This document shows positions 6,046-60,072 of a stretch of 64,000 bases of DNA, one piece after another. The stretch spans positions 97,842 to 161,841 of the forward strand of contig CAZDEP010000001.1 of NCBI GenBank assembly GCA_964504715.1, read 5' to 3'. This DNA comes from an uncultured Candidatus Saccharibacteria bacterium. Lineage in GTDB: Bacteria; Patescibacteriota; Doudnabacteria; UBA920. The position numbers were made by a program, and so were the translations under genes. How positions within the stretch are numbered: position 1 is the stretch's first letter; each line of letters begins with the position of its first letter. The notes beneath the pieces are model-generated. The model saw nothing but the letters and a program-made list of their open reading frames with translations. It did not search any database and had not been told where the DNA came from.

Positions 6046-6102
6046 CACTAATCGCACCAATATAGGATTAGTGAAATTTGTGGCATTTGTGAATTTGTGA
6101 CC
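6046..6102 (+). repeat. Start-codon-proximal palindromic leader element (CACTAAT/ATTAGTG plus 3x ATTTGTG units), ends 1 nt before ATG 6104
   Basis: cactaatcgcaccaatataggattagtgaaatttgtggcatttgtgaatttgtgacc. Related to the element at 27796-27872. Confidence 0.6.
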
Positions 6103-6103
6103 T

Positions 6104-6640
6104 ATGAAGTTTATAAAAGATCTTTTGTTATTTGAAATAACCACCACCGGCACCGACTTGGATAAAGACAATATTATCCAGCTTTCTGCTGTGGTGCTCG
6201 ACAAAGATAACCTGCTGGAAAAAGGCTATTTTAATTCTTATATCCGGGTAAGTTATTTGGACAATATTATTTGGGAGCATTCAAAGCTTTTGCGCATCCC
6301 GCCTGAAATGCTGAAAAAAAGCAGCAAAGTTTATGATGTTATAAAAAAGTTCCACCACAGTTTTGGCAAAGAGTATTTGCTTGCCACCCACAACCTTACC
6401 AATATTATGTTTTTGAGGCAGGCGTTTAAAAAAGCCGTTGTGCCCTGGACTTACGAGCAGCATGTGCTGGATTTGTGGACTCTGGGCTACATTTATACCT
6501 TAAATTACGGCCTTAAAAAAATGCCCTCGGCCAATACTTTTTTTGATTATTTTAAAATTAAACAGTCCAACCCTTACGATGCCCTGGAAAAAGTGAGAAA
6601 CGAAGCGGAAGTTTTTAGGAAAATTATTAGAGAAGTTTAA
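6104..6640 (+). CDS. DEDDh 3'-5' exonuclease (DnaQ/oligoribonuclease-like), paralog 1
   Basis: LLLFEITTTG (Exo I) and C-terminal H-x4-D motif (YDALEKV region). Homologous to the next gene. Confidence 0.7.
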   Translation: MKFIKDLLLFEITTTGTDLDKDNIIQLSAVVLDKDNLLEKGYFNSYIRVSYLDNIIWEHSKLLRIPPEMLKKSSKVYDVIKKFHHSFGKEYLLATHNLTNIMFLRQAFKKAVVPWTYEQHVLDLWTLGYIYTLNYGLKKMPSANTFFDYFKIKQSNPYDALEKVRNEAEVFRKIIREV

Positions 6641-6642
6641 CA

Positions 6643-6750
6643 TAATTCGAATTATCCGAATGAAGGCAGTCCGAATGCCCCTAAAGGCAAAGTTTCGGAT
6701 CATTCGGATCCGCCCTGGGGCGGATAATTCGGAGCATTAGGATTATATTT
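6643..6750 (+). repeat. Leader element: 3 direct (T)CCGAAT units, centre, 3 inverted ATTCGGA units, abutting ATG 6751
   Basis: aattcgaatt atccgaatg agtccgaatg ... tttcggatc attcggatc ... ataattcggag. Confidence 0.6.
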
Positions 6751-7314
6751 ATGGATTTCAAAAAAGATTTATTGCTTATTGACTTAGAGACCACGGGGTT
6801 GGATGCGCAAAAGCACGAAATAATCCAAATCGGCGCAGTACTTTTGGACAGGAAGACTTTGAAGGAAAAGGAAGTTTTTTCGTCATATAGTAAACCCGCT
6901 AAGTGGAAAAAGCGCGATCCGGAATCCATGAAAATAAACGGCATCACTTGGGAAAACCTAAAAGGCGCTCCCAGCTTGAAAGAAGTTTTGGGGAGGTTCA
7001 GCGGGCTTTGTAGGCCCGAAAACGTGGTGCTTTCTTATTACGGCGGCCCTTTGGATATGGATTTTTTGCGCGAAGCGTATAAAAAGGCCGGGCTTAAATG
7101 GCAGTTTGACTACCATTACTTTAACTTGTGGGCGGTATTCTATGCGTTTTTGGCTTCCAAGAATAAGCTAAGAAATTCCAAAAAATTTACGGGGTTTTCT
7201 TTGGACGATTTTATGAAGGAATTCAAAATTAAGTCCAACAGCCGCCACGACGCCTTGGAAGACTGCAGAATAGAGGCGGAGGTTTTGCGCCGAATCGTGC
7301 AAAATTTAAAATAG
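6751..7314 (+). CDS. DEDDh 3'-5' exonuclease (DnaQ/oligoribonuclease-like), paralog 2
   Basis: LLLIDLETTGLD (Exo I) and HDALEDCRIEAEV (Exo III, H-x4-D). Confidence 0.75.
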   Translation: MDFKKDLLLIDLETTGLDAQKHEIIQIGAVLLDRKTLKEKEVFSSYSKPAKWKKRDPESMKINGITWENLKGAPSLKEVLGRFSGLCRPENVVLSYYGGPLDMDFLREAYKKAGLKWQFDYHYFNLWAVFYAFLASKNKLRNSKKFTGFSLDDFMKEFKIKSNSRHDALEDCRIEAEVLRRIVQNLK

Positions 7315-7336
7315 CAAAAAACTACATATAATACAT

Positions 7337-8335
7337 ATGAATGATAATATGCCCGCCAGAGGCGGGTCCCTGCCCGTACGGCAGGCGGGCGCCTTTGGCG
7401 CAAAGATCGTATTTTTTGGAACATCCAACGTTGCGCTTCCGGTTTTAGAAGCTTTATCAAAAAAACATGAAATTGCGGCCGTGGTTACCATGCCGGACGC
7501 GCCGGTGGGCAGGTCCCAGGTTTTAACCGAAAGCCCGGTTTCCGTTTTGGCCAAAGAGATGAACTTAAAAATCCTGAAGCCTGCCAAGGTCAAGGATAAC
7601 GAAGTTTTTAAGCTGGAACTGCAGAGTTTTGGAGCTGAACTTTTCGTTGTCGTTTCTTATGGTCAGATTTTGCCAGAAGAAGTAATTAACATGCCGAAGT
7701 TTAGGACACTCAATGTCCACTTTTCTCTTTTGCCGAAATACCGCGGTCCTTCCCCCATCCAATCGGCAATTTTAAACGGCGAAAAAGAAACGGGCACATC
7801 AATTTTTATTCTCGACGAGCAAGTGGATCATGGGCCCGTTTTGGCACAAAAACCCATGACTATAGATGAGGATGACAATTCGGTAAGCCTTTCCCAAAAA
7901 TTAGCCTTCGCGTCTGCGGAGCTAATTATTCCCACCATCGAAAGTTACACATCGGGCAGCCTAATAGCCCAGCCTCAGGACGATGCCGCCGCCACGCACA
8001 CGCAGCATATAGACAAAGCCCACGGCAGGATTGACTGGAATAAGCCCGCGCAGGAAATTTATAACCAATTCCGGGCTTTTTACCCTTGGCCCGGGATTTG
8101 GACGAAGTGGGACGGGAAAATTTTAAAAATAGTTGATTGCAGAACTATAGAACTACAGAATCAAAACACTACAGATGCCTACAGAAACGGGCAGGTTTTG
8201 GATGGAGGGGTAGTGGCGTGCGGAGAAAATACTTGTTTGCAAATTAATACCCTCCAATTGGAGGGTAAAAAAGAAACAAAAATATTGGATTTTTTGAACG
8301 GTTATCCCAATTTTATTTCATCCTTGCTGGAATAA
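7337..8335 (+). CDS. fmt: Methionyl-tRNA formyltransferase
   Basis: IVFFGTS N-terminus, HFSLLPKYRGPSPIQSAIL formyltransferase motif, C-terminal Fmt domain. True start may be a downstream Met. Confidence 0.9.
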   Translation: MNDNMPARGGSLPVRQAGAFGAKIVFFGTSNVALPVLEALSKKHEIAAVVTMPDAPVGRSQVLTESPVSVLAKEMNLKILKPAKVKDNEVFKLELQSFGAELFVVVSYGQILPEEVINMPKFRTLNVHFSLLPKYRGPSPIQSAILNGEKETGTSIFILDEQVDHGPVLAQKPMTIDEDDNSVSLSQKLAFASAELIIPTIESYTSGSLIAQPQDDAAATHTQHIDKAHGRIDWNKPAQEIYNQFRAFYPWPGIWTKWDGKILKIVDCRTIELQNQNTTDAYRNGQVLDGGVVACGENTCLQINTLQLEGKKETKILDFLNGYPNFISSLLE

Positions 8336-8347
8336 GATTGTTTAGAC

Positions 8348-9247
8348 TTATTTTAGATATTTAAGCTTATTGGCTACGTGTTCCTCAAACGTCCTTGAAT
8401 ACACCGGCTCGCCCGAGGGCTGTTTGTGCAGGAAATAAAAGTAGTCGGTATGAGTAGGGTTTAAAACAGCCGTAATGGAAGAAAGTGAAGGGTTGCCGAT
8501 GGGCGTGGGTGGTAATCCCCTGTTTTTGTAAGTGTTGTAAGGGGAATTTTTTTCCAGGTCCTCTAAAAGCGGCGAAGGGTCATTTTTGCCGGTAAAGTAG
8601 TTAATTGTCGCGTCACTTTGGAGCGCCATGCCGGCATTTAGGCGGTTGTAAAAAATCCCGGCAACAATGCGCCGTTCTTCGTCCAGTCTGGCTTTGGATT
8701 CGGCGCTTATGGCATTTCTGCCGGTTTCGTTTTCAATTATTGATGCCAAAGTAATTGCTTCATACACGCTTAAACCCTGTTTTTTTGCCAGCGCTTCCGC
8801 GTTTGTAGGGAGCCGTTTTTTAAATGTGTCTAAAAGCTTTTTTATTATGGTTCCGGAAGCTTCGTCTGCAGGCGTTAATGAACGGTCGGAAATAGATTTA
8901 AACAAACGGTAAGAGTCGGGATATAAAAATCCTTGGAGGTCGCCTTTTGCGTCTTTGGGCAGCAAGTCGTCGTATTCCGAGGTATTAAAGTTTTTTAAGG
9001 CCTTTAAAAAATCACTCGCAGAAACAATCCCCTGCTTTTCCAAATAAGCGGCAATTTCTTTGTTGGACCAGCCTTCAATTATGCGGATATTTATTTCTTC
9101 GGCCTTCTGGTTTTCTATGGATTGCTTTTTTAAAAGCAATTGGTTTTTTTTGTATTTATAGTAAGCCCCGCCTAAGCCGCACGCTAAAATAAGCGCCAAG
9201 GCGCCTAAGATTATGCGGTGTTTTGTGCTGAGTAAAGAAATTTGCAT
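8348..9247 (-). CDS. mltG: Endolytic murein transglycosylase MltG/YceG family
   Basis: N-terminal TM helix and YceG-like core GLPPTPIGNPSLSSI...YFYFLHK. Confidence 0.75.
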   Translation of the reverse strand: MQISLLSTKHRIILGALALILACGLGGAYYKYKKNQLLLKKQSIENQKAEEINIRIIEGWSNKEIAAYLEKQGIVSASDFLKALKNFNTSEYDDLLPKDAKGDLQGFLYPDSYRLFKSISDRSLTPADEASGTIIKKLLDTFKKRLPTNAEALAKKQGLSVYEAITLASIIENETGRNAISAESKARLDEERRIVAGIFYNRLNAGMALQSDATINYFTGKNDPSPLLEDLEKNSPYNTYKNRGLPPTPIGNPSLSSITAVLNPTHTDYFYFLHKQPSGEPVYSRTFEEHVANKLKYLK

Positions 9248-9353
9248 AGAACAATTATACCATTGCCCAGGGCTTGGGCAAAGGGTAATTATGAAAAACC
9301 CTCCCCATTTATACGGGGAGGGTTTTGAAAACGCGTGTTCCCAAAATACGGAT

Positions 9354-10040: not shown

Positions 10041-10135
10041 TTGTTTTTCCTTTCTTTTTATATTCTCCGCCTTTTGGCGGAAAGTCCCCTGTTACCGACC
10101 AAACAAGGTTGGTTAAGAATTTGTATGAAAAATAA

Positions 10136-10576
10136 TTATTCTCCGATTATGGTAATGTTCACCTGCCTGTCTCTCCCTCCGTCGCACTCTACAAAAAACA
10201 CGCTTTGTCTGGGGCCTAAAATCAGCTGTCCTTTTTCAATTCCCACCGATTCCGATGACCCTAAAATAAAAGCTTTAACGTGTGCGTGGCCGTTACTCCT
10301 TTCGTTGGGGGCAACATTTTGCCTAACCTCAAACAGGTCATGGCTGTAACTTACGTCCACAGGTGCCAGACGGTAGAGCATTTTCATAATGTCCTGAATA
10401 AGCAAGGGCTCATTGTGGTTAAGCCTTATCCCGGCCGTGGTGTGTGGGCTGCCCACGCTTACCAAGCCGTTTTGGACGCCTGACTCTACCACCGCTGTCT
10501 TAATTTGCAGGGTGATATCTATAAGTTCAAACTGCTTTTTAGTCTGAAGGAGTATTTTTTTATTTTCAATTTTCAT
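10136..10576 (-). CDS. yjbQ: YjbQ family protein (UPF0047)
   Basis: HTTAGIRLNHNEP...GHAHVKAFILGSSESVGIEKGQLILGPRQSVFFVECDGGRDRQVNITIIGE fits the YjbQ pattern. Confidence 0.75.
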   Translation of the reverse strand: MKIENKKILLQTKKQFELIDITLQIKTAVVESGVQNGLVSVGSPHTTAGIRLNHNEPLLIQDIMKMLYRLAPVDVSYSHDLFEVRQNVAPNERSNGHAHVKAFILGSSESVGIEKGQLILGPRQSVFFVECDGGRDRQVNITIIGE

Positions 10577-10819
10577 ATTTTTGTATCTGTGGGTCCCAGC
10601 AAGTTTGCCAGTATTTTTAAATTATACCATATCTTTGCCAAATGGGGAAATCAAAAACTCCGAAACAGAGCACTTTGCGTAGTTGCTCTATTTATCGAGC
10701 CTTAAAAAGGCCTGATAAATCAGGCAACTACTACAAAAAACTACAAAAAACCAAGGGGAAATTAAAACTCCCCTACCCATAAAAAAGGGAGAGGAGTTTC
10801 TTTGGCGCATACGGTAGGC

Positions 10820-16658: not shown

Positions 16659-17390
16659 TTAGACACCCTTTAAGTACTTGAGCCTTAAAGTTTGGGGCAG
16701 GCGTTCTATGGAATACCTAAGCATTGTCCTGGGCATTTGCTTGTGGTGGCGGTTGAGAAATTCTATTAGCAGTGCTTGGTTGCAGCGTTTGCCCGCTTCC
16801 CTAAGCATCCAGCCCGTGGCTTTGTGGATAAGGTCGTGCTTGTCATCCATTAAAATTTTTGAAATCTGCAAGGCGTCTTTTGCGTCGCCATAGTAAATAA
16901 AATCAAAAGTGGCCAAAATTGCAATCCGCCTTTCCCAAAGGTTTTTGGATTTAGCCAGCCGATATAAAATTGCTTTATTTTTTTTGCGCAAGTAAGCGCC
17001 CACAATTTTTGGCGCGCTTAAATCCACCAAATCCCAGTTGTTTATGTATTTGGTGTGCTTAAGATAGAAATCAAAAATTGCCTTTTGCTCTGGCGTACTA
17101 GCTTGTCCGTCGTAGTCTTGACGAAGACGGGTACTTTGAAACTTGAAAATAAGGATAAAAAGTGCGATCAGCCGCTCTTCGTGGATTTTGCTTTTGAGTA
17201 AAGTTTTTAAATCTTTTAATATTAAATCTTTAAATTGCCTGGCCACTTGCCTTTGCGCGGGCACCACAATACCTAAAAATTTGTCGCCCTCGCCATACTC
17301 CCCTTTTCCCGTCTTAAAAAACCTTTGCAGAAGTTCTGCCTTTTTGGGGTCGGCCAGTTTTCTTATTTCGTCTCTGAGTTGATATAACAT
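16659..17390 (-). CDS. DNA alkylation repair protein (AlkC/AlkD HEAT-like repeat family)
   Basis: N-terminal LADPKKAELLQRFFKTGKGEYGEGDKFLGIVVP is characteristic of PF08713. Confidence 0.75.
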   Translation of the reverse strand: MLYQLRDEIRKLADPKKAELLQRFFKTGKGEYGEGDKFLGIVVPAQRQVARQFKDLILKDLKTLLKSKIHEERLIALFILIFKFQSTRLRQDYDGQASTPEQKAIFDFYLKHTKYINNWDLVDLSAPKIVGAYLRKKNKAILYRLAKSKNLWERRIAILATFDFIYYGDAKDALQISKILMDDKHDLIHKATGWMLREAGKRCNQALLIEFLNRHHKQMPRTMLRYSIERLPQTLRLKYLKGV

Positions 17391-18190: not shown

Positions 18191-19723
18191 TCAAACTAAT
18201 AAGCTTTCCCCGGTCATTGACGCGGGTTTTTTTTTGTGCATTAGGCTTAAAATGGTGGGAGCGATGTTGGCCAAAGAACCATTAAAAGATTTAAGATTTA
18301 AAGATTTAAAATTGGAAACCAATATAAACGGAACAAGATTGGTTGTGTGGGCGGTGTGTTTTTCGCCCGTAACTGAATCAACATTCTGTTCCGCATTGCC
18401 GTGGTCCGCGGTCACTATTGCAACCCCTTTTTTAGACAGCACAGCCTCGCAAACCCGTTTAAGTTCCCTGTCCACGGTTTCCACGGCGGTAATTATTGCG
18501 CTTTTGTTTGCCGTATGGCCCACCATATCGGCATTGGCAAAATTTACCACCAGAAAATCGTCGCCGGCGCTTATTCTCTCTATGGCTTTGTCCGCAATTT
18601 CCCGCGCGCGCATTTCGGGCGCCAAGTCGTGCGTGGCCACATCGCGCCGGCTGTCAATTAAAAAATGTTGTTCCGCCACATGCGGGGTTTGCCTGCCGCC
18701 GTTGAAAAAGAAAGTCACGTGCCCGTACTTTTCCGTTTCCGCAATGTGCGACTGCTTTAAGCCGGCCCGGCTAATTTCCGCCGCCAAAGTTGTATCCAAC
18801 TTTTGCGGCGGGAAGGCAACCACCGCGTCTATGTCGGGATGGTATTCGGTCATGGTTACAAAAAACAAATTTTGTTTTTTTGCGCGCTCCACAATTTTTA
18901 GCGAGAGCTGGCGCGGCCGGTCGGTGCGGAAATTAAAGAAAAAAATACCATCGTTATCCTCGACCGTGTACGCTTTGCCGCTATCATCCAAAAAAACCAG
19001 CGGTTCCAGGTACTCGTCCATAGCCCCTTCTTGGTAAAGCGCGCGCAGGGCCTCGGAGGGCTTAAGGCCTTTGAAAGTTTTGCCTTCGCCTTCAAAAATT
19101 GCCTTTTCCGCTTTTTCCGTCCGGTGCCAGTTTTTGTCGCGATCCATGGCAAAATAGCGGCCGGTGGCCGTGGCAATAAAGCCTATTCCTAAATCTTCCA
19201 CCACTTTCTCCAGCTCGCAGAGGTACTTATGGTTTTCCTTGGGAGGCGCGTCGCGCCCGTCGGTAAAGGCGTGAATAATTATTTTGCTTATGCCGGACTG
19301 TTTGGCCGCTTTTAAAAATCCGTGCAAATGTTCCTGGTGGCTATGCACCCCAATGGGGCTGACCATGCCTAAAATATGCAGCGCGGAGTTGTATTTTTTG
19401 ACATGCTCAAACAGCTTAACAAAAGCCGGATTGGACTTAAACTCGTCATTGTTTAAAGCTTTGGATATGCGGACAAGTTCGGTGTCTATGGTTCTGCCCG
19501 CCCCCATTGTCATGTGGCCGATTTCGCTGTTGCCAATGGTGCCCTTGGGCAGGCCCACGGCTTCTTCGGACGCGTCCAAAACAGCATGGGGGTATTTCTC
19601 CATGGCATAATCAAAAAATGGGGTATGAGCCTCGGCAATGGCATTGTGTTCGCTTTCCTGCCGAAGGCCCCAGCCGTCTAAAATAATAAGGCAAACTGGG
19701 CGTATACCATCATACTTTATCAT
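18191..19723 (-). CDS. gpmI: 2,3-bisphosphoglycerate-independent phosphoglycerate mutase
   Basis: N-terminal LIILDGWG, metal-binding ADHGN motif, 510 aa. Confidence 0.9.
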   Translation of the reverse strand: MIKYDGIRPVCLIILDGWGLRQESEHNAIAEAHTPFFDYAMEKYPHAVLDASEEAVGLPKGTIGNSEIGHMTMGAGRTIDTELVRISKALNNDEFKSNPAFVKLFEHVKKYNSALHILGMVSPIGVHSHQEHLHGFLKAAKQSGISKIIIHAFTDGRDAPPKENHKYLCELEKVVEDLGIGFIATATGRYFAMDRDKNWHRTEKAEKAIFEGEGKTFKGLKPSEALRALYQEGAMDEYLEPLVFLDDSGKAYTVEDNDGIFFFNFRTDRPRQLSLKIVERAKKQNLFFVTMTEYHPDIDAVVAFPPQKLDTTLAAEISRAGLKQSHIAETEKYGHVTFFFNGGRQTPHVAEQHFLIDSRRDVATHDLAPEMRAREIADKAIERISAGDDFLVVNFANADMVGHTANKSAIITAVETVDRELKRVCEAVLSKKGVAIVTADHGNAEQNVDSVTGEKHTAHTTNLVPFILVSNFKSLNLKSFNGSLANIAPTILSLMHKKKPASMTGESLLV

Positions 19724-19769
19724 ACTTTATAAGTATAACACTTTTTATGCTAAAACTTTAGCAAAGTTT

Positions 19770-26296: not shown

Positions 26297-27055
26297 TTAT
26301 TTTGCTTGAGGTTTAATTTTTTCCAACCGGCCCTTTAATTCCAGATACTTAAAATTTTGCGGATCAATGGCTAAACCGTGAGCCAGCGCTTCCATTGCCT
26401 CTGTGGGCTCGTTTAAGGCCTTGAGGCTTTGCGCCAGATTATAATAGCGGTTTGGCTGGTTTGAATCAAGTGCTACCGATTTTTTGTAGGCTTCGGCGGC
26501 TTCCGAATAATTTTGGGTTTTAAAGGAAACGAAGCCCAAGTTAGACCAGTATTCCGCCATTCCCGAAGCGTGGGAGGTTAAGTACATATATATATCCCGC
26601 GCATCAGCAAAATTCCCATGATGCAAATAATATTTGCCCAAGTCGTCGTAAAGCTTTAAATTTTTTGGCTCTTTTTTTATTAATTCGAGCAGGTCGTCTT
26701 CGCTTACCGGAATTTGGGGAATGTCCCGCGGCTCTTCGGCCAAATGCGGGATTTCCGGCGCGCGGTTGCGCGCCGCAAACAGCCGTTTGACTTTTAAAAC
26801 CGCACTGCCGGAAGGCGTAATTTCTTTTGCTTCCAATATAAACCGCCAGATTTTTTTTACCCAAAAAACCACATGGTGCCTAATTTTGGAAAAACTTTCC
26901 GCCGGCAAGCCTTTTCTTGTGAGTTTTTCGTGGGCTGGCTGTTCCTTTTCTTTCCCGCCCAAGAGGTTGGCCTCCGGCAAGCGCCTGAGCACCATTAAAA
27001 TGGCGACGAAAATCGCAAGCAGGAAAATTAAGGTTGGAATTATTTGGTAAGACAA
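26297..27055 (-). CDS. TPR-repeat protein with N-terminal membrane anchor (TTG start)
   Basis: N-terminal hydrophobic helix. C-terminal half has tetratricopeptide repeats (AEYWSNLGFVSFKTQNYSEAAEAYKKSVALD...). Confidence 0.65.
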   Translation of the reverse strand: MSYQIIPTLIFLLAIFVAILMVLRRLPEANLLGGKEKEQPAHEKLTRKGLPAESFSKIRHHVVFWVKKIWRFILEAKEITPSGSAVLKVKRLFAARNRAPEIPHLAEEPRDIPQIPVSEDDLLELIKKEPKNLKLYDDLGKYYLHHGNFADARDIYMYLTSHASGMAEYWSNLGFVSFKTQNYSEAAEAYKKSVALDSNQPNRYYNLAQSLKALNEPTEAMEALAHGLAIDPQNFKYLELKGRLEKIKPQAK

Positions 27056-27059: not shown

Positions 27060-27200
27060 AGAATTGACCTAATTACCTAATTGCCCTAATTATTCTAAAC
27101 AAATCCCAATGACTAATTTTAAAATTGGGTATTAGACATTCTTTAGGGCACTTAGAATAATTAGAAATTAGGAATTTATAAGTCTAATCTTGTGCCCGAA
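27060..27200 (-). repeat. Leader/intergenic element: 3 direct CTAATT units, central CCCAAT/ATTGGG hairpin, 3 inverted AATTAG units; abuts the TPR gene start
   Basis: cctaattac ctaattgcc ctaattatt ... cccaatgactaattttaaaattggg ... ttagaataattagaaattagg. Confidence 0.55.
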
Positions 27201-27203: not shown

Positions 27204-27794
27204 CTAATTGCCCAAAACGAAACGGGCGAAACGCCTTACGACCACATTTTCCCCCATTTTGGCAACCGCATCGGCCACAAACCGTTCCACCGTAATGTCC
27301 GGATTTTTTACAAAGGGCTGGCTTAAAAGGCAGGCTTCCTCAAAATATTTGTTGAGTTTGCCGTCCAGAATTTTATTTGCAATCTCTTCGGGCTTGCCTT
27401 TCAGGCTGTCTTTGGCCTGCTCGCGGTAAATTTCTTTTTCTTTTTCCACGACTTCGGCCGGGACGTCATTTTTGGATACGTAAAGCGGATTGGCCCCGGC
27501 AATGTGCAGGGCCAGCTCGCGGGCCAAGGTTTTAAAATCCTCGGTACGGGCCACAAAGTCGGTTTCGCAATTTATTTCCAGCAAAACTCCAACCCGGCTG
27601 CCCGGATGGATATAGGCCTCAACCAGGCCTTCTTTGGCGACGCGATCCGCTTTTTTTCCCATTTTGAGCGCGCCTTTTTTGCGGAGGATCTCCACCGCTT
27701 TATTTTTGTCCCCGCCGGCTTCATCCAGAGCGGTTTTTACGTCCATTAGTCCCGCACCTGTGAGTTCGCGGACTTCTTTTATAATATCGTTCAT
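27204..27794 (-). CDS. tsf: Elongation factor Ts
   Basis: MNDIIKEVRELTGAGLMDVKTALDEAGGDKNKAVEILRKKG N-terminal UBA-like signature. Confidence 0.95.
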   Translation of the reverse strand: MNDIIKEVRELTGAGLMDVKTALDEAGGDKNKAVEILRKKGALKMGKKADRVAKEGLVEAYIHPGSRVGVLLEINCETDFVARTEDFKTLARELALHIAGANPLYVSKNDVPAEVVEKEKEIYREQAKDSLKGKPEEIANKILDGKLNKYFEEACLLSQPFVKNPDITVERFVADAVAKMGENVVVRRFARFVLGN

Positions 27795-27795
27795 A

Positions 27796-27872
27796 GATCA
27801 CTAATGCACAAATTGCACAAATTGCACAAATATCGGATTAGTGATATTTGTGGTATTCGTGTATTTGTGATC
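27796..27872 (-). repeat. Leader element between rpsB and tsf: CACTAAT/ATTAGTG stem plus 3x (G)CACAAAT and 3x ATTTGTG units, ending 1 nt before the tsf start codon
   Basis: gatcactaatgcacaaattgcacaaattgcacaaatatcggattagtgatatttgtggtattcgtgtatttgtgatc. Confidence 0.6.
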
Positions 27873-27876
27873 TTAA

Positions 27877-28813: not shown

Positions 28814-29077
28814 ATGAAGCCCACTATCCATCCCCAATTCCATACCAGCGCTAAAATATCTTGCGCTTGCGGCAATGTTATAATAACCGGTGCCACGGTG
28901 GCAGAAATGCACACTGAAATCTGTTCGAATTGCCATCCGTTTTACACCGGCAAGCAGAAACTCGTGGATACCGCCGGACGCGTTGATAAATTCAAGCAGC
29001 GCCAGGCCGCCGCAGTGGCTAAAAAGTCTACGGTTTCCGCCAAAAAGCCCCGCAAAGTCAGAGCCGCCAAGGAGTAA
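28814..29077 (+). CDS. rpmE: 50S ribosomal protein L31
   Basis: MKPTIHPQFHTSAKISCACGNVI...CSNCHPFYTGKQK (L31 CxxC zinc motif). Confidence 0.9.
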   Translation: MKPTIHPQFHTSAKISCACGNVIITGATVAEMHTEICSNCHPFYTGKQKLVDTAGRVDKFKQRQAAAVAKKSTVSAKKPRKVRAAKE

Positions 29078-29198
29078 ATTTTACTTTTTACACAACCACC
29101 CGCATGTAAGTTTTGGGTGGTTTTGTGTTAGAATAAAGTTAATCCCCGTCAGTTTATCCTGAAAGAAGTCCGGGGTAGAATATAAATTACGGAAACAT

Positions 29199-30269
29199 AT
29201 GGAACCCGCGTTGCAAAAAATATTAGACGAATACGACCAAATAACCGCTGATTTATCCAAAGGCGGCGGTGTTGATATTGCCAAATTAGGTAAGCGTCAG
29301 GCGGAGCTCGGGCCTATAGTAGAAAGAATTAAGAATTATGAATTAAGAAGTAAGGAATTGGCAGATAATTTAACTTTGATAAAAGATGCAGATCCGGATA
29401 TTGCCGAGTTGGCCAAAAGCGAGGTAAGCAGGCTGGAAACCGAAACAGCGGGCTTAAAATCCGAAATCGAGGAAACACTTTTGCCTAAAGACCCGAATGA
29501 TGACAAGAATGTAATTGTTGAAATAAGGGCGGGCGCCGGCGGAGATGAAGCCACACTTTTTGTGGCGGAGCTTTTTCGCGCCTACGGCAAGTTTGCCCAG
29601 GGAATGGGATTTAAACAGCATATTGTATCTTCTTCGCGGAGCGAAGCGGGCGGGTTTAAGGAAGTCATTTTTGAAATTCACGGCAGGGCATCGGCCAGCG
29701 CCGGCCCTTATGCGATTTTTAAATACGAGTCCGGAGTTCACCGCGTGCAGCGCGTGCCGGAAACCGAAAAGAGCGGCCGCGTGCACACTTCCACCCTAAC
29801 CGTAGCCGTCTTGCCGATTTTGGAAGAAAAAGATTACGCCATTGACCTCAAAGACTTGAAAATTGAGGCCACCACATCTTCGGGCCACGGCGGCCAATCG
29901 GTTAACACAACCTATTCCGCCATTCGCATCCTCCACATACCTACGGGCATTACCGCCCAGTGCCAGGACGAACGTTCCCAGGCACAAAACCGCGAAAAAG
30001 CCATGGAAGTCATTCGCGCCCGCGTGGCCGCGCACTACGAAGAGATTGAAAACAAAAAAGTGCGCGACCTTACTAAAAGCCAAATTGGCACCGGCGACCG
30101 CAGCGAAAAAATTCGCACCTACAACTTCCCCCAGGACCGCGTTACCGACCACCGCATAAACCAAAATTTCAACCAAATAAACTTAATTATGGAAGGCGAG
30201 CTCTCCCCCATTATCTCCGCCCTCCAAAAGGCGGATGTGGAGGCAAAAAAAGGCGCGCTGAAAGCATGA
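29199..30269 (+). CDS. prfA: Peptide chain release factor 1
   Basis: GGQ motif SGHGGQSVN and RF1-type RVQRVPETEKSGRVHTS tripeptide region. Confidence 0.9.
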   Translation: MEPALQKILDEYDQITADLSKGGGVDIAKLGKRQAELGPIVERIKNYELRSKELADNLTLIKDADPDIAELAKSEVSRLETETAGLKSEIEETLLPKDPNDDKNVIVEIRAGAGGDEATLFVAELFRAYGKFAQGMGFKQHIVSSSRSEAGGFKEVIFEIHGRASASAGPYAIFKYESGVHRVQRVPETEKSGRVHTSTLTVAVLPILEEKDYAIDLKDLKIEATTSSGHGGQSVNTTYSAIRILHIPTGITAQCQDERSQAQNREKAMEVIRARVAAHYEEIENKKVRDLTKSQIGTGDRSEKIRTYNFPQDRVTDHRINQNFNQINLIMEGELSPIISALQKADVEAKKGALKA

Positions 30270-30284: not shown

Positions 30285-31172
30285 TTGACCAAGATGAAAA
30301 TCCGGGAATGCCTAAAAAAATATTCAAACATAGAAATCGAGCTCCTTTTGGCGGATGTGTTAAAAAAGCCTAAGGAGTTTATTTTTTTGCATCCCGAGTT
30401 TATTTTATCATCTAAACATCTTAAGACTTTGGAAGCGCAAGTTAAGAGAAGACAGGAGGGCGAGCCCGTGGCTTACATTTTGGGCTACAAGGACTTTATG
30501 GGGCGTCGTTTTGCCGTAAATAAGGATGTGCTTATTCCCCGCCCGGAGACTGAAGGGCTTGTCGAACTTGCGCTCGACAGAATTAAGAATTATGAATTAG
30601 GAATTAAGAATGCCAAATCGTTACGTATTTTGGACGTGGGCACAGGCAGCGGGTGCATAGCTGTTTCTTTGACAGCAATGATGCCCGTTGCGCCAAGCAA
30701 CGGGTATCATTGCGAAATCACAGCGTCGGATATATCAAAAAAAGCTTTGGTAGCAGCCAAGCAAAATGCAAAAAGCCACAAAGCAAAAATCACATTCATC
30801 CACAGTGATTTGTTTAAGGACATTCCTGGCAAGTTTGATGTGGTTGTGGGCAATCTTCCTTACGTGCCTATGAAAATGCTTAGGAAGCATTTGTTGCACC
30901 GCGCCAAGTTTGATGCCCAGGACCCTTTTGCCGGTTTAAAATACGAACCCAAATTCGCGCTAACGGACGGGACCAGTATTTGGCTAATCTACAAACGTTT
31001 TTTTGAGGAAGCCAGGGCGCATTTAAACCCCGGCGCGGTGATTCTGCTTGAAATTGACCCGGCATCGAGAAAGTTTTTAAAAACTTATCAGCAGAAGTAT
31101 TTGCCGGGAGCTAAGGTGAAATTTTATAAAGATGTAAACAATTTGTGGAGGTATATGGAAATAGCAAGATGA
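30285..31172 (+). CDS. prmC: Release factor glutamine N5-methyltransferase
   Basis: ILDVGTGSGCIAVSL SAM-binding motif and VVVGNLPYVP (NPPY-like). Adjacent to prfA. Confidence 0.85.
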   Translation: MTKMKIRECLKKYSNIEIELLLADVLKKPKEFIFLHPEFILSSKHLKTLEAQVKRRQEGEPVAYILGYKDFMGRRFAVNKDVLIPRPETEGLVELALDRIKNYELGIKNAKSLRILDVGTGSGCIAVSLTAMMPVAPSNGYHCEITASDISKKALVAAKQNAKSHKAKITFIHSDLFKDIPGKFDVVVGNLPYVPMKMLRKHLLHRAKFDAQDPFAGLKYEPKFALTDGTSIWLIYKRFFEEARAHLNPGAVILLEIDPASRKFLKTYQQKYLPGAKVKFYKDVNNLWRYMEIAR

Positions 31173-33690: not shown

Positions 33691-33787
33691 AGAGTAATAT
33701 CAAATTTTCAATTCCTAACAGAACACCAATACCTCATCAATTTGGCATTTTCGGCATTAGGAATTGGTTGGTAATGGGGAATTAAAA

Positions 33788-34689: not shown

Positions 34690-34803
34690 TAGCGGGGTTT
34701 TTGGTACAATCTAATTGACAAAATTGACAAAAATAAAAAAATTGACAAAATTAGACTGCGATTAAATTTTGTTCAATTATGTCAATTATGTCAATTTTGC
34801 TCA
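34690..34803 (+). repeat. Leader element: 3 direct TTGACAAAA units, centre, 3 inverted (T)GTCAATT units, ending at the dnaE start codon
   Basis: aattgacaaaattgacaaaaataaaaaaattgacaaaatt...gtcaattatgtcaattatgtcaattttgctca ATG. Confidence 0.6.
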
Positions 34804-37800
34804 ATGAACTTTGTTCACCTCCATTGCCATTCCCATTATTCGCTGCTTGATGGGCTGTCCAAAATTGACCCGCTGCTTACGCGGGCCAAGGAACTTGGCA
34901 TGCCTGCTTTGGCTTTAACCGACCATGGCACTATGTATGGTGCCGTGGAATTTTATACGCACTCCAAAGATATAGGCATCAAGCCCATAATTGGCCTTGA
35001 GGCTTATATTGCGCCAAGGAACCTTGCGGACAAAGAAGGCCGAAGCGACGCGGACTATTTTCATTTGACTTTGCTTTCCAAGAACAGTGAAGGTTATGCC
35101 AATCTTATTAAACTGACGACCATTGCGCATTTGGAAGGCTTTTATTACAAACCGCGCATAGATTTGGAAGTATTAAAGAAGCACTCAGAAGGGTTGATAG
35201 CCTTAAGCGGCTGCCAGCGCGGCGAAATTCCGCGCGCCATTATGAACAGGCCGCAAGGTGAAGCCGACAAAGTGTTGGGAAAATATTTGGATATTTTCGG
35301 GCGCGAAAATTTATTTATTGAAATCCAAAAGAATAGCCGCCATGACGACCCCAAAGAACTGGAGTTACTGGAAAAGTCGGTGGCTTTTGCGCGGCACAAT
35401 TCGTTGCCTTTGGTGGCCACAGCCGATTGCCACTATATATATCCGGAAGATATGGAAGCCCAGGACGTTTTGGTGTGTATTGGTACGGCGCGCACTGTGG
35501 GTGACGCTAACCGTTTGGATATGCGCGGTTACGATTTGTCTTTAAAATCCGCGGAAAAAATGGCTGAGCTTTTTTATCAAACCCCCGAGGCGCTGGAAAA
35601 CACCCTTAAAATTGCCGAGATGTGCAATTTTGAAATGAAGCTCAACCAGCGTTATTTTCCAAGCGTGCCAATCCCGGAAGGCATGACTTCCGCGGAATTT
35701 TTGCGGCAGCTGACATACGAGCGGGCGAAAAATATTTACGCCAAGGACGGCCCCAATTCTCCCATCCCCCCCGAAATCCAAACGCGCATAGACTACGAGC
35801 TCGACATTATTATAAAAAAAGGTTTTGACACCTACTTTTTAATGGTGGCCGATGTGGTGGAAGGTGCGCACAAAGTCGGTGCGATTACCAACACCCGCGG
35901 CAGCGCGGCCGGCAGCATTGTGGGATACATTTTGGGCATTACCAATGTGGATCCGCTCTATTTTGAATTGCCTTTTGAGAGGTTTTTAACCGCCCATCGC
36001 CCCACACCGCCGGATATTGACCTGGATATTGCCGACAACCGGCGCGATGAAGCCATTGCCTATATTACAAAAAATTACGGCCGCGACAAAGTGGCACAAA
36101 TAATTACTTTTGGGACCATGAAGGCCCGGGCGGCGGTAAGGGATGTGGGCCGCGCTTTGGGCGTGCCCTATTCCAAATGCGACCGCATTGCAAAAATGAT
36201 TCCAATTGGCAAGCAGGGGTTTGACATGACCCTCGACAAGGCCCTTGAGATGAGTCCGGAACTTAAGGAAGTTTACGCCCAGGATCCCGAAACGCGCACT
36301 GTGCTGGAAATTGCAAAAAAAATCGAAGGCAATGCCCGCCATGCCTCGGTCCACGCCGCCGGCTTGGTTATTACTCCCACGGTTTTAACCGACTACATGC
36401 CCTTGCAGAAAGAACCCGACGGCGAACGCATTATTACCCAGTACGATATGTACGCTTTGGACGTAAATGCCAACAGTAAGGCCATTGGCGTGGTAAAATT
36501 GGACCTTTTGGGCATCCGCAATCTTTCCATTCTGGAAGCGGCGGTAAATTTGGTAAAAAAGCGCCACAACATCGACATCAACATATACAAACTGCCGCAT
36601 CCGGATAAAAAAACTTTTGAGCTGCTCGGCGCCGGCCTGACCTTCGGCGTTTTCCAGCTTGGGTCTTCGGGCATGACCAGGTATTTAAGGGAGCTTAAGC
36701 CTGCCTCCATTTTTGACATTATGGCCATGATAGCGCTTTACCGCCCGGGGCCCATGCAGTTTATAGAGGATTTCATTAAACGCAAGCACAACCCCCAGCA
36801 CATAAAATATTTTGATCCGGCTTTTGAAAAAATTCTCCACAGGACCTACGGCATTTTGGTGTACCAGGACGATTTGCTCACAATCGCCCACGATTTGGCG
36901 GGCTACAGCTGGGAAGAAGTGGATAAGTTCCGGAAGGCCGTCGGTAAAAAAATTCCCGAAGAAATGGCCAAGCAGAAAATTAAATTTATCCAGGGCTGTA
37001 TGAGCACGAGCGGCTGGAGCCACACCAAGGCTTCGGAAATTTGGAATTGGATTGAGCCGTTTGCCGCTTACGGCTTTAACAAATCCCATTCGGCGTCATA
37101 CTCGGTCGTCGCTTACCAGACGGCTTTTATGAAAGCCAACTATCCGGTGGAATTTATGGCCGCGGTTATGACCGCCGAGTCGGGAGACGAAGACAAAATT
37201 TACGAGGCCGTTGAAGAATGCAAAAATTTAGGAATTAAAATTTTGCCACCCGATGTTAATACCTCCGATGCCGACTTTACGGTGGTCGACGAAAAGACGA
37301 TCAGGTTTGGCCTCAACGCCGTGAAGAATTTAGGGAGCGATGTGATCGCCAAGATAATTGAGAGCAGAAGTGTAGTCGACCCATTTATGGGGCCTGATAA
37401 ATCAGGCAACTACTTCCAATCTCTGGAGGATTTCCTGCTTAGGGCCCACGTTAAAAATTTCAACAAAAAATCCTGGGAAGCTTTGGTTAAAGCCGGCGCG
37501 CTGGACAATTTTGGGGAAAGGAACCAGCTCTTGGCCTCCACGGAAGAGGTTTTGGATTTTGTCCGGGAACATTTTAAGGCCGAGGAGCAGGGACAGGTGT
37601 CGTTGTTCGGCAAATCTTTAAAACTTGGGCAGCTGGTTTTAAAAAAAGTTGAGCCCGCTACCAAAGAAGACAAGCTGGGGTGGGAAAAGGAACTTTTGGG
37701 CATGTATGTTTCCGCGCATCCTTTGGATAATTACCAAAAAGTACTGGGCCACCTTTCTTCCATCCGCCAGTTAAAAAGCGCGGCGGACGGCAGTATTGTT

Positions 37801-41274: not shown

Positions 41275-41398
41275 ATAGCCAGTCATCTTAGTTTAAGTGT
41301 CCTCAAGCTTTTTTTAAGAGCTCAAAAGACAGTCTTAAATTGTTTAATAAATTTTAGTAAGAGTGTAAGGTGAGCTCTTAGAGAAAGCCTTTGAAAAA

Positions 41399-41710
41399 AT
41401 GGCGAAGAAACTCTTTATCGGCAGTCTGCCTTGGGCGACTACCGGTGACGACCTTAAGCAGCTTTTTTCCCAACACGGCACCGTTACTTCGGCTACCGTG
41501 ATAATGGATAAAATGACTGGCAGGTCTCGCGGTTTTGGTTTCGTTGAATTTGAAAACGATGCCGAAGCTGACGCCGCAGTTGCAGCCTTAAATGGTTACA
41601 CTTTGAGCGGCAGGCAAATTACCGTTAACGAAGCCCGTCCTATGGAAGACAGGCCTCCCCGCAGAAATTTCGGCGGCGGTAACGGCGGCGGTTGGAACAA
41701 CAACCGTTAA
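41399..41710 (+). CDS. Glycine-rich RNA-binding protein (single RRM)
   Basis: RNP-2 LFIGSL, RNP-1 RGFGFVEF, C-terminal GGGNGGGWNNNR tail. Confidence 0.9.
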   Translation: MAKKLFIGSLPWATTGDDLKQLFSQHGTVTSATVIMDKMTGRSRGFGFVEFENDAEADAAVAALNGYTLSGRQITVNEARPMEDRPPRRNFGGGNGGGWNNNR

Positions 41711-49288: not shown

Positions 49289-49289
49289 A

Positions 49290-49380
49290 ATTCGAATTTT
49301 CAAATTTGAAAAATATTTAATTTAGAAATTAAATTTATTAATTTTTTGGATTTCGAATTTCGCACTTCGGATTTATTTTA
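49290..49380 (+). repeat. Leader element of TTCGAA/TTCAAA/TTTGAAA units and inverted copies, abutting the recR start
   Basis: aaattcgaattttcaaatttgaaaaa ... ggatttcgaatttcgcacttcggattt. Confidence 0.45.
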
Positions 49381-56533: not shown

Positions 56534-56535
56534 CA

Positions 56536-56620
56536 ATTAGCTAGTAGCCGGTAGTCTGTAGGCGGGCAGTTTGGCTACCCCCTACTTGCTACAAGCTACT
56601 CGCTAAATTCTCAATATTAG
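56536..56620 (+). repeat. Leader element: 3 direct xGTAG units and 3 inverted CTAC units before the start of the second GT39 gene
   Basis: agctagtagccggtagtctgtaggcgg...ctacttgctacaagctactcgcta. Confidence 0.5.
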
Positions 56621-56623
56621 TTT

Positions 56624-58213: not shown

Positions 58214-58305
58214 TTATAAAAAAAACAGGCATTATTGCTTATACAGTAATGCCTGTTTTTAATTTGCAAGGTAGATTGCCAGCGGTTTGTTCGGCATAAC
58301 ATAAA

Positions 58306-58340
58306 ATGACGGTCTTCTTGCTTTGCAAGAAGACCGTCAT
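58306..58340. repeat. Second copy of the palindromic hairpin ATGACGGTCTTCTTGC-TTT-GCAAGAAGACCGTCAT; bidirectional terminator
   Basis: Arms identical to 31169-31203. A separate hairpin plus U-run at 58233-58268 terminates the GT39 gene. Confidence 0.7.
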
Positions 58341-58345
58341 TTGGT

Positions 58346-59026
58346 TTACTCAATCACTGTACCTTCAAACTCTTTTCCCAGCAAAATTTTTTCCAGGTTC
58401 TTTAAGTTCTTGCCTGCCGCTATAATTGCACGTAGACCGGAAGCTTTGGCGGTTTTTGCTGCCGTCGGATCAAATGGCAGATTTGCTCCGGGGTTCCACT
58501 GGCTACCGGTAATTTTTAAAAGTCCTGGCCACGAAATATTTTTAATTTTTTTTGCGTCTTGGAATTTTTTCGGGTCCTTGCTGTAAAGAAAGGGAATGTT
58601 GCTTAAATTAATAATTGTCTTTCCGCCGTAGGCCAGGGCGAGCCTTACAGCGTCGTCGTCGGTACTCCTTCCCGGCATCCACCCGCCGGCCACTAGAATT
58701 TTTTCCTTAAAATTTAATTTTTTGTTGGGATCGGAAATCACGTTGGGGTTGGCCAGCTTTCCGAACATCAGCTGAATGAGTTTGGCATTCAGCCAGGTTG
58801 ACTGTATGCCCAGCCAGTCCAGAGCCGTATTGTCGGGCTTGGAGATTTGCGACAAGGCAGCCTGATATTTCCGGCAGGTTTTTCCGCCACCGGTAATTAA
58901 AATAAACCTGTTCCCCCGCTTTGCATGGCGTTCTATTAGGCTTTTAAAGCTTTTCAGGAATTTTATGTCCACTTCATCGGGAACAATTAGCGAACCGCCT
59001 AAAGAAATTACAAAAAGATTTTTCAT
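58346..59026 (-). CDS. pyrH: Uridylate kinase-like amino-acid-kinase family protein (archaeal-type PyrH-like)
   Basis: LFVISLGGSLI, ILITGGGKTCR, LVAGGWMPGRSTDDDAVRLA motifs. Long ORF begins at 59083, but the internal Met at 59026 avoids overlap with the upstream gene. Confidence 0.6.
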   Translation of the reverse strand: MKNLFVISLGGSLIVPDEVDIKFLKSFKSLIERHAKRGNRFILITGGGKTCRKYQAALSQISKPDNTALDWLGIQSTWLNAKLIQLMFGKLANPNVISDPNKKLNFKEKILVAGGWMPGRSTDDDAVRLALAYGGKTIINLSNIPFLYSKDPKKFQDAKKIKNISWPGLLKITGSQWNPGANLPFDPTAAKTAKASGLRAIIAAGKNLKNLEKILLGKEFEGTVIE

Positions 59027-59031
59027 ATGGG

Positions 59032-59979
59032 CTATTTTATGGGCGTGGTTGTCGCTTGGACAGGCTGTGGCTCCCGGGCGCACTCGGCATCAAGGTAACA
59101 CACAAAACCTTTGTCGTTAATTCTCATGTCTATATATTTTATTGAATGTATTCTAGCTTGACCAATATCTTTAAGCAAGAGGGCCGCTTGATAGACGGTT
59201 TTGTCCATGTCGGAATTTATGTCGAAATACCAAGACCACCCGTATTGGGTTTTAATTTCAACCTCCGGGCTTTCTGGGTTTTCTAACGCAATGCTTTTTG
59301 TTTCTGAGTCAAGTTGTGTGCGCAGTAAGGTCATTAGCGCATTTAAATTCTGAATATACCCATCTCCAAAGGCGTTTTGGTTTTCATAAAAAATCTCTTC
59401 TTTCTTTATAATTAGGGGTAACAGCAGGCCGGCTTCGCTGCTGCTGGCGTACATTTCAGAGCTGCTTAGTTGTCTTGTCACCAGCCCGTCATTGGAAACA
59501 ATATAAGCGCTTTGCGGCGTTTGCATTTGGAATTGGTCATAGCGGCCCTGGACGGTAATTTTGAGAGTTGCCGGGAAGTGTTTTTTAATCGATATTATTT
59601 GGCTGATCTGGCCGTTTTTTTTAAGCAGGTAATCGGAAAGCCTTTCTTTGGATAGCAAAACTAAATTTGACCGTGACCACGGAAAACGGACAGCCAGGTA
59701 ATCGCGCACAGTTTTCTCTACTGACTGGCTTTCGGTTTCGTTGATCCCGGAGATTTGCACAGTTTTTACGGAAAACAAATTCGGAATATAAAAAAAGTAT
59801 ATTGCGAAAATCATAATTAGGCCCGCGTATATTTTATAGCGCAAAGAAGACAGGCCAATTTTATTAAAAAATATCCCCCATTTGGTTTGGGGAATATTTT
59901 TGGCTACTCTTTTGTACCCCCGGGCATCTTGGAGTTTTTTTCGGAAGTTTGGGTTTTGGAATTTTATTTTATTGTTCAT
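59032..59979 (-). CDS. FtsQ/DivIB-like cell-division protein (TM anchor plus POTRA-like domain)
   Basis: Cytoplasmic basic N-terminus, TM helix LIMIFAIYFFYI, then VKTVQISGINETES... as in the POTRA domain of FtsQ. Confidence 0.45.
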   Translation of the reverse strand: MNNKIKFQNPNFRKKLQDARGYKRVAKNIPQTKWGIFFNKIGLSSLRYKIYAGLIMIFAIYFFYIPNLFSVKTVQISGINETESQSVEKTVRDYLAVRFPWSRSNLVLLSKERLSDYLLKKNGQISQIISIKKHFPATLKITVQGRYDQFQMQTPQSAYIVSNDGLVTRQLSSSEMYASSSEAGLLLPLIIKKEEIFYENQNAFGDGYIQNLNALMTLLRTQLDSETKSIALENPESPEVEIKTQYGWSWYFDINSDMDKTVYQAALLLKDIGQARIHSIKYIDMRINDKGFVCYLDAECAREPQPVQATTTPIK

Positions 59980-59984
59980 GTGAT

Positions 59985-60072
59985 ACTTATATACTAATCA
60001 TGCGAATGATACAGATGGATACGAATATATTATTAGCATTATTTATAATATTAGTACCCATTCGTATATTGG
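59985..60072 (-). repeat. Leader element with direct CGAATGATACA/GATACGAATAT units and inverted ATTCGTATAT/GGTATCATT units, upstream of the ftsQ-like start
   Basis: tatactaatcatgcgaatgatacagatggatacgaatatattattagc...attagtacccattcgtatattggtatcatt. Confidence 0.45.

Follow-up and report, generated by a model that had tools for sequence, protein, structure and literature searches.

The DNA considered here, called the window throughout, is a stretch of 64,000 nucleotides from an uncultured Candidatus Saccharibacteria bacterium (GTDB lineage Patescibacteriota; Doudnabacteria; UBA920), corresponding to positions 97,842 to 161,841 of contig CAZDEP010000001.1. It is a compact run of housekeeping genes, and four tRNAs are the only Rfam families in it that reach their gathering threshold. 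Among named organisms, the nearest relatives of its EF-Ts protein belong to Candidatus Doudnabacteria of the Patescibacteria, and an identical protein also occurs in Logan assemblies. Eight spacers of this gene run are occupied by quasi-palindromic elements, designated E1 to E8, whose two arms consist of direct and inverted copies of one short unit with a period of 7-9 nt (Table 1). Elements of this architecture are present both in related genomes and in other phyla. They extend from one stop codon towards the following start, fall into a few unit families, can be replaced at the same spacer by unrelated sequences of the same design, and in three cases are conserved well above synonymous sites.

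The initial annotation described the elements as three direct repeats followed by three inverted copies of the same unit. A blind detector requiring at least three direct and at least three inverted copies of one k-mer, with at most one mismatch, was compared with a null of 30 block-wise dinucleotide shuffles of the window. At k=6, it recovered all eight elements (14 matches vs. 6.4±2.4 in shuffles), and at k=7, it recovered E1, E4 and E5 (3 matches vs. 0.03). The architecture is thus real, recurrent and above the shuffled level at both word lengths, although the copy number lies mostly nearer to 4+4 than to 3+3: E1, E3, E4, E5 and E7 have about four units per arm, E2 has 3+3, and the layout is weak in E6 and E8 (2-3+3). 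All eight elements were found where they had been placed, except that a start of E1 at 6046 omits its 5' arm.

Folding as RNA was assessed by comparing each element with 200 shuffles. The expected hairpins were obtained for E1 to E5 and E7, with z-scores of -4.5 (E1), -3.1 (E2), -3.0 (E3), -6.3 (E4), -4.2 (E5) and -5.8 (E7). The minimum-free-energy (MFE) structures, whose outermost pairs define the extents in Table 1, contain 27-35 pairs in seven elements and 18 in E8. These stems are interrupted by evenly spaced mismatches of 1-2 nt, and the 3' arm of E2 holds a nested GC hairpin. E2 and E6 have AATTCGAATT in common right after the stop codon and are otherwise little alike. Permissive Rfam scans of the elements returned only eukaryotic miRNA-precursor models, far under threshold.

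Table 1. Repeat-armed elements, associated features and unit families in the window and in loci from other assemblies (L labels: relatives and other-phylum controls).
Feature	Position	Strand	Units or motif	Location and remarks
E1	6021-6101	+	TACAAAT, CACAAAT, CACTAAT, CACCAAT / ATTAGTG, ATTTGTG x3 (family A)	Spacer between def and the RNase T-like exonuclease gene exo1
E2	6646-6733	+	TCCGAAT / ATTCGGA, 3+3	Spacer between two exonuclease genes (exo1-exo2)
E3	27060-27190 (core 27076-27172)	-	CTAATT / AATTAG	Downstream of tsf
tsf (EF-Ts)	27204-27794	-		Coding sequence
E4	27795-27873	-	CACTAAT, CACAAAT x3 / ATTAGTG, ATTTGTG, ATTCGTG, ATTTGTG (family A)	Occupies the rpsB-tsf spacer
Putative extended -10 of dnaE	34702-34710	+	TGGTACAAT	Consensus match and alignment
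E5	34714-34805	+	TTGACAAAA x4 (one degenerate) / TTATGTCAA-type x4 (family B, period 9)	Directly 5' of dnaE
E6	49289-49373	+	TTCGAA-type units, AT-rich	dnaB-recR spacer
E7	56537-56606	+	GTAG / CTAC cores, 7-nt period, ~4+4	Between two GT39/PMT_2 genes
E8	59984-60074	-	TACCAAT, TACGAAT, TACTAAT / ATTCGTA, ATTAGTA (family A, TAC subtype)	Spacer between serS and the FtsQ-like POTRA gene
Family A			YACNAAT / ATTNGTR	E1, E4, E8; def-exo1 spacer of L105 and L107; serS spacer of L101; rpsB-tsf spacer of L083 and L087, shortened in L088
Family B			TGACAAAA / TTTTGTCA, period 9	E5; full hairpin in exo1-exo2 of L107; arrays of direct repeats only, at the start of exo2 (L104/L105) and of prmC (L083)
Family C			GTATTAA	GT39 spacer of L101; upstream of serS in L102
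rpsB-tsf repeat-armed hairpin, L033	1498-1583			
rpsB-tsf repeat-armed hairpin, L060	7358-7488			
rpsB-tsf repeat-armed hairpin, L065	9856-9955			
rpsB-tsf repeat-armed hairpin, L080	1347-1414			
rpsB-tsf repeat-armed hairpin, L025	1319-1389			

The elements had been thought to abut a start codon in every case. This applies only to E1 (2 nt before the exo1 ATG at 6104), E4 (0 nt from the tsf ATG) and E5 (0 nt), whose stem takes in the A and U of the dnaE AUG. The stems of E8, E6, E2 and E7 end 4, 7, 17 and 17 nt short of the ATG, respectively, so that in seven of the eight elements 0-17 nt separate the stem from the next start. For E3, the distance to the TPR gene start used in public assemblies (26995) is 64 nt, with an alternative TTG at 4 nt and a conserved promoter-like block between the element and position 26995. 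On the other side, the distance from the upstream stop codon to the stem is 0-5 nt (0 nt in E6 and E8, 3 nt in E4 and E7, 5 nt in E2), and the 5' arm of E1 covers the last seven def codons together with the def stop (6042-6044). The elements fill whole spacers and are not attached to starts as such; since their stems start so close to the upstream stop, they are 3' or intercistronic elements as much as leaders.

Genes preceded by the elements indeed have no Shine-Dalgarno (SD) sequence, but this does not distinguish them, because hardly any SD-like motif occurs among the 58 genes of the window. Initiation without SD is thus a genome-wide trait and not a property of the hairpin genes. About 16 of the 58 genes carry a TATAAT-like box whose end lies 5-13 nt from the ATG (examples are the genes at 3699-5096, 7337-8335, 8348-9247, 16659-17390 and 28890-29162), and this Doudnabacteria genome seems to use leaderless or near-leaderless mRNAs as a rule. 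No TATAAT-like box at leaderless spacing was found for exo1, tsf and recR, and these genes are probably co-transcribed with the gene upstream. The case of E5 is different. Because a conserved extended -10-like box lies just upstream of it, E5 probably represents the 5' untranslated region, or leader, of dnaE. This box is kept as TGGTATGCT in L083 and as TGATATGCT in L088, at the point where sequence similarity stops; the promoter scan tool did not list it because it has no -35 match.

Two other assignments were rejected. A promoter reading of the 3' arms of E1 and E4 was set aside, as no convincing -10 hexamers are found at leaderless spacing. Intrinsic termination was likewise set aside: no T-run follows any element, and a terminator scan returned nothing at E1/E2 or E5, while canonical terminators with a GC stem and a U-tract exist elsewhere in the window (intergenic regions I12, I16 and I10).

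Conservation of the elements was compared with that of third codon positions in the flanking genes. E4 is identical to its counterpart in L083 at 80 of 82 positions, both differences being located in the loop, whereas the third positions of tsf and rpsB are 52% and 66% identical (P=3e-16); even against all coding positions, of which ~85% are identical, the element is better preserved (P=2e-4). The L087 copy matches at 79 of 82 positions, and L088 has a shorter related form. E1 and its L105 counterpart agree at 73 of 86 positions, compared with 57% at exo1 third positions (P=3e-8). Similarly, E8 and the L101 copy, which folds better (-20.9 kcal/mol), share 83 of 98 positions, compared with 66% at third positions (P=3e-5). 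Conservation so far above synonymous sites shows that established copies matter to the cell and that some of them are under purifying selection.

This conservation in related genomes applies to E4, E1 and E8, whereas E2, E3, E5 and E7 are replaced or absent. One case of replacement is the GT39 spacer, which contains three different hairpins, built on GTAG/CTAC in the window, GTATTAA/AAATAC in L101 and GAATTAT/ATAATTC in L100. These sequences cannot be aligned, and protein identity to the window is 91% for L101 and 82% for L100; the architecture thus persists at one spacer while its sequence changes completely. In L102 and L103, with a protein identity of 65%, this spacer has 32-44 nt and no hairpin. 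E3 is kept in L087, exchanged for an AAATTTC/GAAATTT hairpin in L083 and missing from the 38-nt spacer of L088. The exo1-exo2 spacer contains E2 in the window, a TGACAAAA-type hairpin in L107 and only direct repeats of the TGACAAAA type in L104/L105. E5 is absent in L083 and L088, which have CTTACT direct repeats instead, and E8 is absent from the 17-nt spacer of L100. In the dnaB-recR spacer, L103 has a repeat-armed CAAAAT/ATTTTG hairpin and L102 has none. Spacers without an element measure 7-44 nt in the relatives, which implies that the elements, once folded, restore the usual distance between stop and start.

Unit comparison and BLAST among the elements of the window and its relatives defined three families (Table 1). 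The view that each element uses a different unit is contradicted by family A: E1 and E4 are identical in 65 of 83 aligned columns (78%; shuffles reach at most 54 matches), and E8 is built on the same unit type. The three copies of this family in the window have 72-78% mutual identity, while all other units there are single. The orientation of E4 relative to E1 is too close to call (65/83 vs. 59/82 matches), since both elements are palindromic. Moreover, a 20-nt stretch of E8 recurs with 19 matches in the L107 hairpin between def and exo1, at another locus of another genome, and E5 resembles the arrays upstream of prmC in L083 and of exo2 in L107. Family members and a match of this length at non-orthologous loci indicate that copying between spacers has occurred.

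Within family A, the unit ends read CAC...GTG throughout E1 and E4 (14/15 and 15/15) and TAC...GTA in every unit of E8, L101 and L107. As read from these units, the subfamilies differ by a C-G to T-A switch that runs across all units and both arms, which is a concerted compensatory change. Informative covariation is visible only at the level of units, between subfamilies; RNAalifold detected 0 compensatory pairs among five family-A copies because these copies are too similar.

The architecture is not restricted to Doudnabacteria. An EF-Ts alignment scan of a genome collection gave at least two Doudnabacteria loci among the matches listed, and the remaining loci, from other phyla and 1.14 Mb in length, were used as the control set. 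This set gave 17 matches at k=7, against ~0.6 expected from the window shuffle rate, which is a rough baseline. Units include GGTTTCA in an Acidobacteriota metagenome-assembled genome (MAG), CAGTAAT in Pyrinomonadaceae, GTTTTAA and GTTGAA in Verrucomicrobiota, GGGTGTG in Gemmatimonadota, and CTAATTT and TAAAGTC in Magasanikbacteria. All ten control matches that were checked are intergenic, with co-directional neighbours wherever both open reading frames were identifiable. The rpsB-tsf spacer is modestly enriched (4 matches at k=7 vs. ~0.9 expected, P≈0.013), with hairpins in Verrucomicrobiota, Acidobacteriota and another MAG. In L080, a conventional terminator-like stem is followed by the hairpin and then by an AAGGAG SD sequence. 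In the two Acidobacteriota cases, the hairpin precedes a normal SD. A specific link between the architecture and SD-less initiation, as had been proposed, is therefore not supported.

The explanation favoured here, which is tentative and somewhat short of probable, is that the elements are intercistronic quasi-palindromes (a 5' leader in E5) that arise by slippage and arm-to-arm copying and that couple the neighbouring cistrons and/or dose or stabilise them. Replication slippage would duplicate a short unit, and template switching between the arms would copy a change from one to the other, so that evolution is concerted across all units and the two arms. Occasionally, a whole element or a single arm may be copied to another spacer, which would give rise to a few dispersed unit families. 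Transcribed within operon mRNAs, the elements would fold into a stem of 27-35 bp, remove a spacer of ~60-100 nt and place the stop next to the start at the foot of the stem. A ribosome that terminates there could then open the stem at its base and begin anew on the following cistron by translational coupling, with no need for an SD sequence. For the upstream cistron, the stem may additionally serve as a 3' stabiliser, a processing site or an attenuator. Only self-folding inserts would be tolerated in short spacers, and established elements would be held by purifying selection until a new array takes over.

Several observations are in line with the proposed origin. Tandem repeats of period 7-9 are abundant in the window, including direct-only arrays at start codons, and because they are common even within prfA and prmC, the arms look like slippage products. 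Heptamers are called the commonest long simple repeats in prokaryotes, ascribed to polymerase slippage, in a passage of PMC4679880 that cites Mrazek 2007, and a passage of PMC8794818 states that template switching can create and maintain RNA hairpins. The compensatory switch across all units and the strand-symmetric folding described below both fit template copying from arm to arm.

A number of results weigh against this explanation. E6 (z -1.0) and E8 (z -0.8; weak or decayed in the window) fold no better than shuffles and are not significantly structured. Across 16 elements, sense and antisense strands fold equally well (-388 vs. -380 kcal/mol, with equal use of G-U pairs); a DNA-level or neutral palindrome would fit this result too. 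In E4, unpaired positions are also kept (26/28, P=8e-5), which makes a pure structure model insufficient and hints at sequence-specific recognition. A -10-like hexamer lies between stem and ATG in E2 (a TAGGAT/TATATT stretch), E7 and E8, and the downstream genes may consequently have their own leaderless transcripts without the stem. E5 has no upstream cistron available for coupling, and its TTGACA units score as -35 boxes (4 promoter-like sites vs. 1.0±1.0 in shuffles). Ten of the 11 long hairpins lie in co-directional spacers, but 32 of the 48 spacers are co-directional and the enrichment within the window is not significant. Finally, transcription, slippage or template-switch origin and an effect on coupling or stability are all deduced from sequence, and the function wholly so.

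Among the other explanations, the one that survives best is that the elements are selfish palindromes of the REPIN or miniature inverted-repeat transposable element (MITE) type, copied into spacers by a transposase encoded elsewhere, for example a RAYT or an IS200/IS605-type Y1 enzyme, with only incidental effects on the host. The initial annotation had considered unrelated sequence an argument against mobility, but at least two unit families occur at non-orthologous spacers within and between genomes. Mobility would also account for presence and absence among close relatives (E8 in L100; E5 and a hairpin at 33708 in L083/L088; E3 in L088), for the restriction to extragenic DNA, for the REPIN-like hairpin doublets of ~60-110 nt and for the short-read contigs that end inside E4 and E2. 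E7 is built on GTAG/CTAC, a tetranucleotide that is reportedly conserved in REPs. This explanation is nevertheless considered unlikely. Neither a transposase nor a RAYT or reverse transcriptase turned up among the ~40 window proteins scanned with Pfam or among annotated neighbours in the relatives, and no insertion sequence (IS) was found in the window. No target-site duplication is visible flanking E1, E4 or E8, and filled and empty sites cannot be aligned. No family exceeds three copies in 64 kb, and identity between paralogous copies is just ~78%, whereas orthologous copies are 85-98% identical, far above synonymous sites; dead inserts should decay neutrally. In JGI metagenome contigs, the E1/E4 core GGATTAGTGAWATTTGTGG gave eight matches, all of them fortuitous and located within unrelated coding sequence (G-L-V-K/I-F-V).

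Dedicated 5'-leader hairpins, selected to control the SD-independent initiation of their genes, were the model of the initial annotation. The positions of E1, E4 and E5, which end 0-2 nt from the AUG or include part of it, are compatible with such a role, as are the conserved -10 element upstream of E5 and the conservation of E4, E1 and E8. There is also an analogy in the TAACTGA direct repeats found just upstream of SD-less starts in Beggiatoaceae (PMC4679880). The model appears improbable, however, since starts without SD prevail across all genes of the window, the gap to the start codon is 4-64 nt in five of the eight elements, and the tie to the upstream stop codon is equally tight. Furthermore, the same genes lack any hairpin in relatives with 65-82% identity, the architecture precedes normal SD sequences in Acidobacteriota, and folding shows no sense-strand bias.

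The elements could also act at the DNA level, as operators or nucleoid sites for a protein that reads the repeats, with the TTGACA units of E5 perhaps forming arrays of -35 boxes. Ribbon-helix-helix repressors of the omega/MetJ type read heptads or metboxes of 7-8 bp in direct and inverted copies, and the elements resemble their operators in combining a 7-9-bp period with both orientations. The conserved non-pairing positions of E4, the strand-symmetric folding and the excess of promoter-like matches in E5 point in the same direction. This possibility is regarded as very improbable: the 64 kb, out of a ~1-Mb genome, contain six or more different units, which would need as many cognate proteins, the units at one spacer change fully between close relatives, and no candidate regulator genes adjoin the elements. 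Equally hard to credit are functionless by-products of slippage- and template-switch-prone replication, or else unusual intrinsic terminators, because the abundance of period-7-9 repeats even within prfA and prmC, the weak folding of E6 and E8 and the fast turnover are offset by the degree to which E4, E1 and E8 are conserved, far above that of synonymous sites, and, for termination, by the lack of a U-tract after any stem in a window that has ordinary terminators elsewhere.

By analogy with described systems, the elements would seem to work most like REP/BIME/REPIN sequences and intercistronic processing or attenuator hairpins. The former are likewise extragenic, often intercistronic, imperfect palindromes of ~60-110 nt made of two inverted halves; they form dispersed families that differ between strains, and REPs are known as 3' stabilisers of mRNA. 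REPINs occur in tens to hundreds of near-identical copies per genome, and the cognate RAYT gene is usually flanked by REPs. In the present elements, the inverted-doublet geometry is found, but each arm consists of 3-4 units of 7-9 nt and not of a single REP of 20-35 nt; moreover, there are many low-copy unit families in these 64 kb, no RAYT was seen among the proteins scanned, and orthologous copies are more conserved than paralogous ones. As regards processing and attenuation, the R sites of phage T7, cleaved by RNase III, and the rpsB-tsf attenuator of E. coli are intercistronic hairpins that set cistron expression. They share with the present elements long imperfect stems with internal loops between genes that are co-transcribed, here presumably, a common architecture with differing sequence, and the recurrence of the rpsB-tsf spacer. 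Unlike the present elements, they are not described as having repeat-built arms; no U-tracts occur here.

Other comparisons are more distant. Integron attC sites are also a family defined by structure, of ~57-141 nt, located directly 3' of genes in a co-directional array. The elements described here, in contrast, have internally repetitive arms, core housekeeping neighbours (rpsB, tsf, dnaE, recR, def, serS) and no integrase beside the array, and they contain no R''/R' cores (RYYYAAC/GTTRRRY). MIRUs are short repeats in operon spacers that keep flanking stop and start codons linked for translational coupling, but they are direct tandem repeats of 46-101 bp with small open reading frames, not hairpins of 7-9-nt units. 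TIGR arrays are clustered, have box C/D-like motifs and dual spacers, and lie beside a Tas gene with a Nop domain (PMC12045711); the present elements are single and dispersed among housekeeping genes, and Pfam scans of window proteins revealed no Nop-domain protein. TAACTGA heptamers near SD-less starts have been reported in marine Beggiatoaceae, Cyanobacteria and Bacteroidetes, with a proposed translational role (MacGregor 2015, PMC4679880). These arrays and the cyanobacterial STRR resemble the elements in having tandem repeats of heptamer scale within a few nt of SD-less starts, including those of ribosomal-protein operons, and similar direct-only arrays occur here at prmC in L083, exo2 in L104 and serS in L102. 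However, the TAACTGA system uses one heptamer genome-wide, in 169 direct sets against 1 inverted set (PMC4679880), whereas the units here differ between elements and pair with inverted copies.

Hairpins with arms of tandem units were not found described as a class in the open-access literature. It is conceivable, although doubtful, that 'stop-start bridging' hairpins constitute an undescribed class of cis-elements, spread across phyla, which keep internal cistrons translatable or correctly dosed without SD sequences. In such a class, arms of tandem units would permit concerted evolution and wholesale replacement of sequence while structure and placement are kept, and the rpsB-tsf spacer would be used repeatedly, from Patescibacteria to Acidobacteriota and Verrucomicrobiota. 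The elements bear on how internal operon genes are translated in SD-less bacteria that rely largely on leaderless mRNAs, as do many Patescibacteria, Bacteroidota and Verrucomicrobiota. A hairpin that would remove the spacer, and that is conserved above the neighbouring coding sequence, offers a concrete and testable candidate mechanism. Whatever their function, the elements represent a natural example of concerted compensatory evolution in one hairpin, and they appear to display the birth of hairpins de novo from copied sequence, which bears on the origin of RNA stems.

Further observations concern tandem repeats in the same genomes. A GAATTAA/GAATTAT heptamer array of ~5 copies lies inside each of the adjacent genes prfA (29324-29359) and prmC (30579-30611); both arrays are near-identical and encode ...RIKNYEL.... 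Comparable arrays are present in prfA/prmC of L003 and L083, and the unit is that of the L100 GT39-spacer hairpin. Tandem duplications of 8-10-mers are located across or just 5' of start codons at 19709-19730, 10553-10581 and 5188-5209 of the window, and in relatives at L083 5213-5249, L104 6512-6554 and L102 14674-14712. Examples are AAAGTATGAT x2, TGAAAATA x3.8 and the ATGACAAAA-type x4, and several tandem ATGs result. Because of these tandem ATGs, gene callers differ on the exo2 start in L104 and L105; in practice, start-proximal arrays can mislead gene callers into N-terminal extensions. Independent short-read assemblies of the same organism stop inside hairpins (L001 starts in E4 and L111 in E2), which is consistent with the breakage of de Bruijn graphs at palindromes and repeats, and the elements may thus break short-read assemblies of genomes from the candidate phyla radiation (CPR).

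Further hairpins were observed as well. A plain long one (10679-10731, z -6.65) lies in the spacer between the HU and UPF0047 genes and is absent from that spacer in L105 and L107. Its arm at 10709-10732 is identical over 24 nt to a segment within dnaE (37391-37414; chance ~3e-5) and would be antisense to dnaE mRNA if transcribed with the minus-strand genes; the hairpin looks like one observed soon after its birth from copied sequence. Another plain hairpin, very stable and with ~30 bp (41303-41392, z -6.5), is located directly upstream of a gene for a 103-aa RNA-binding protein with an RRM domain (41399-41710) and could be its autoregulatory leader. A third hairpin lies between a 287-aa gene and ftsW (33708-33772, AATTCCTAA.../...TTAGGAATT, z -2.3); L083 and L088 lack it and have spacers of 39 nt and 7 nt, respectively. 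Additionally, the gene at 21650-22042 matches Phage_holin_4_2 (E 2e-33) and lies amid housekeeping genes, beside tRNA-Thr, rpmG and tRNA-Trp.

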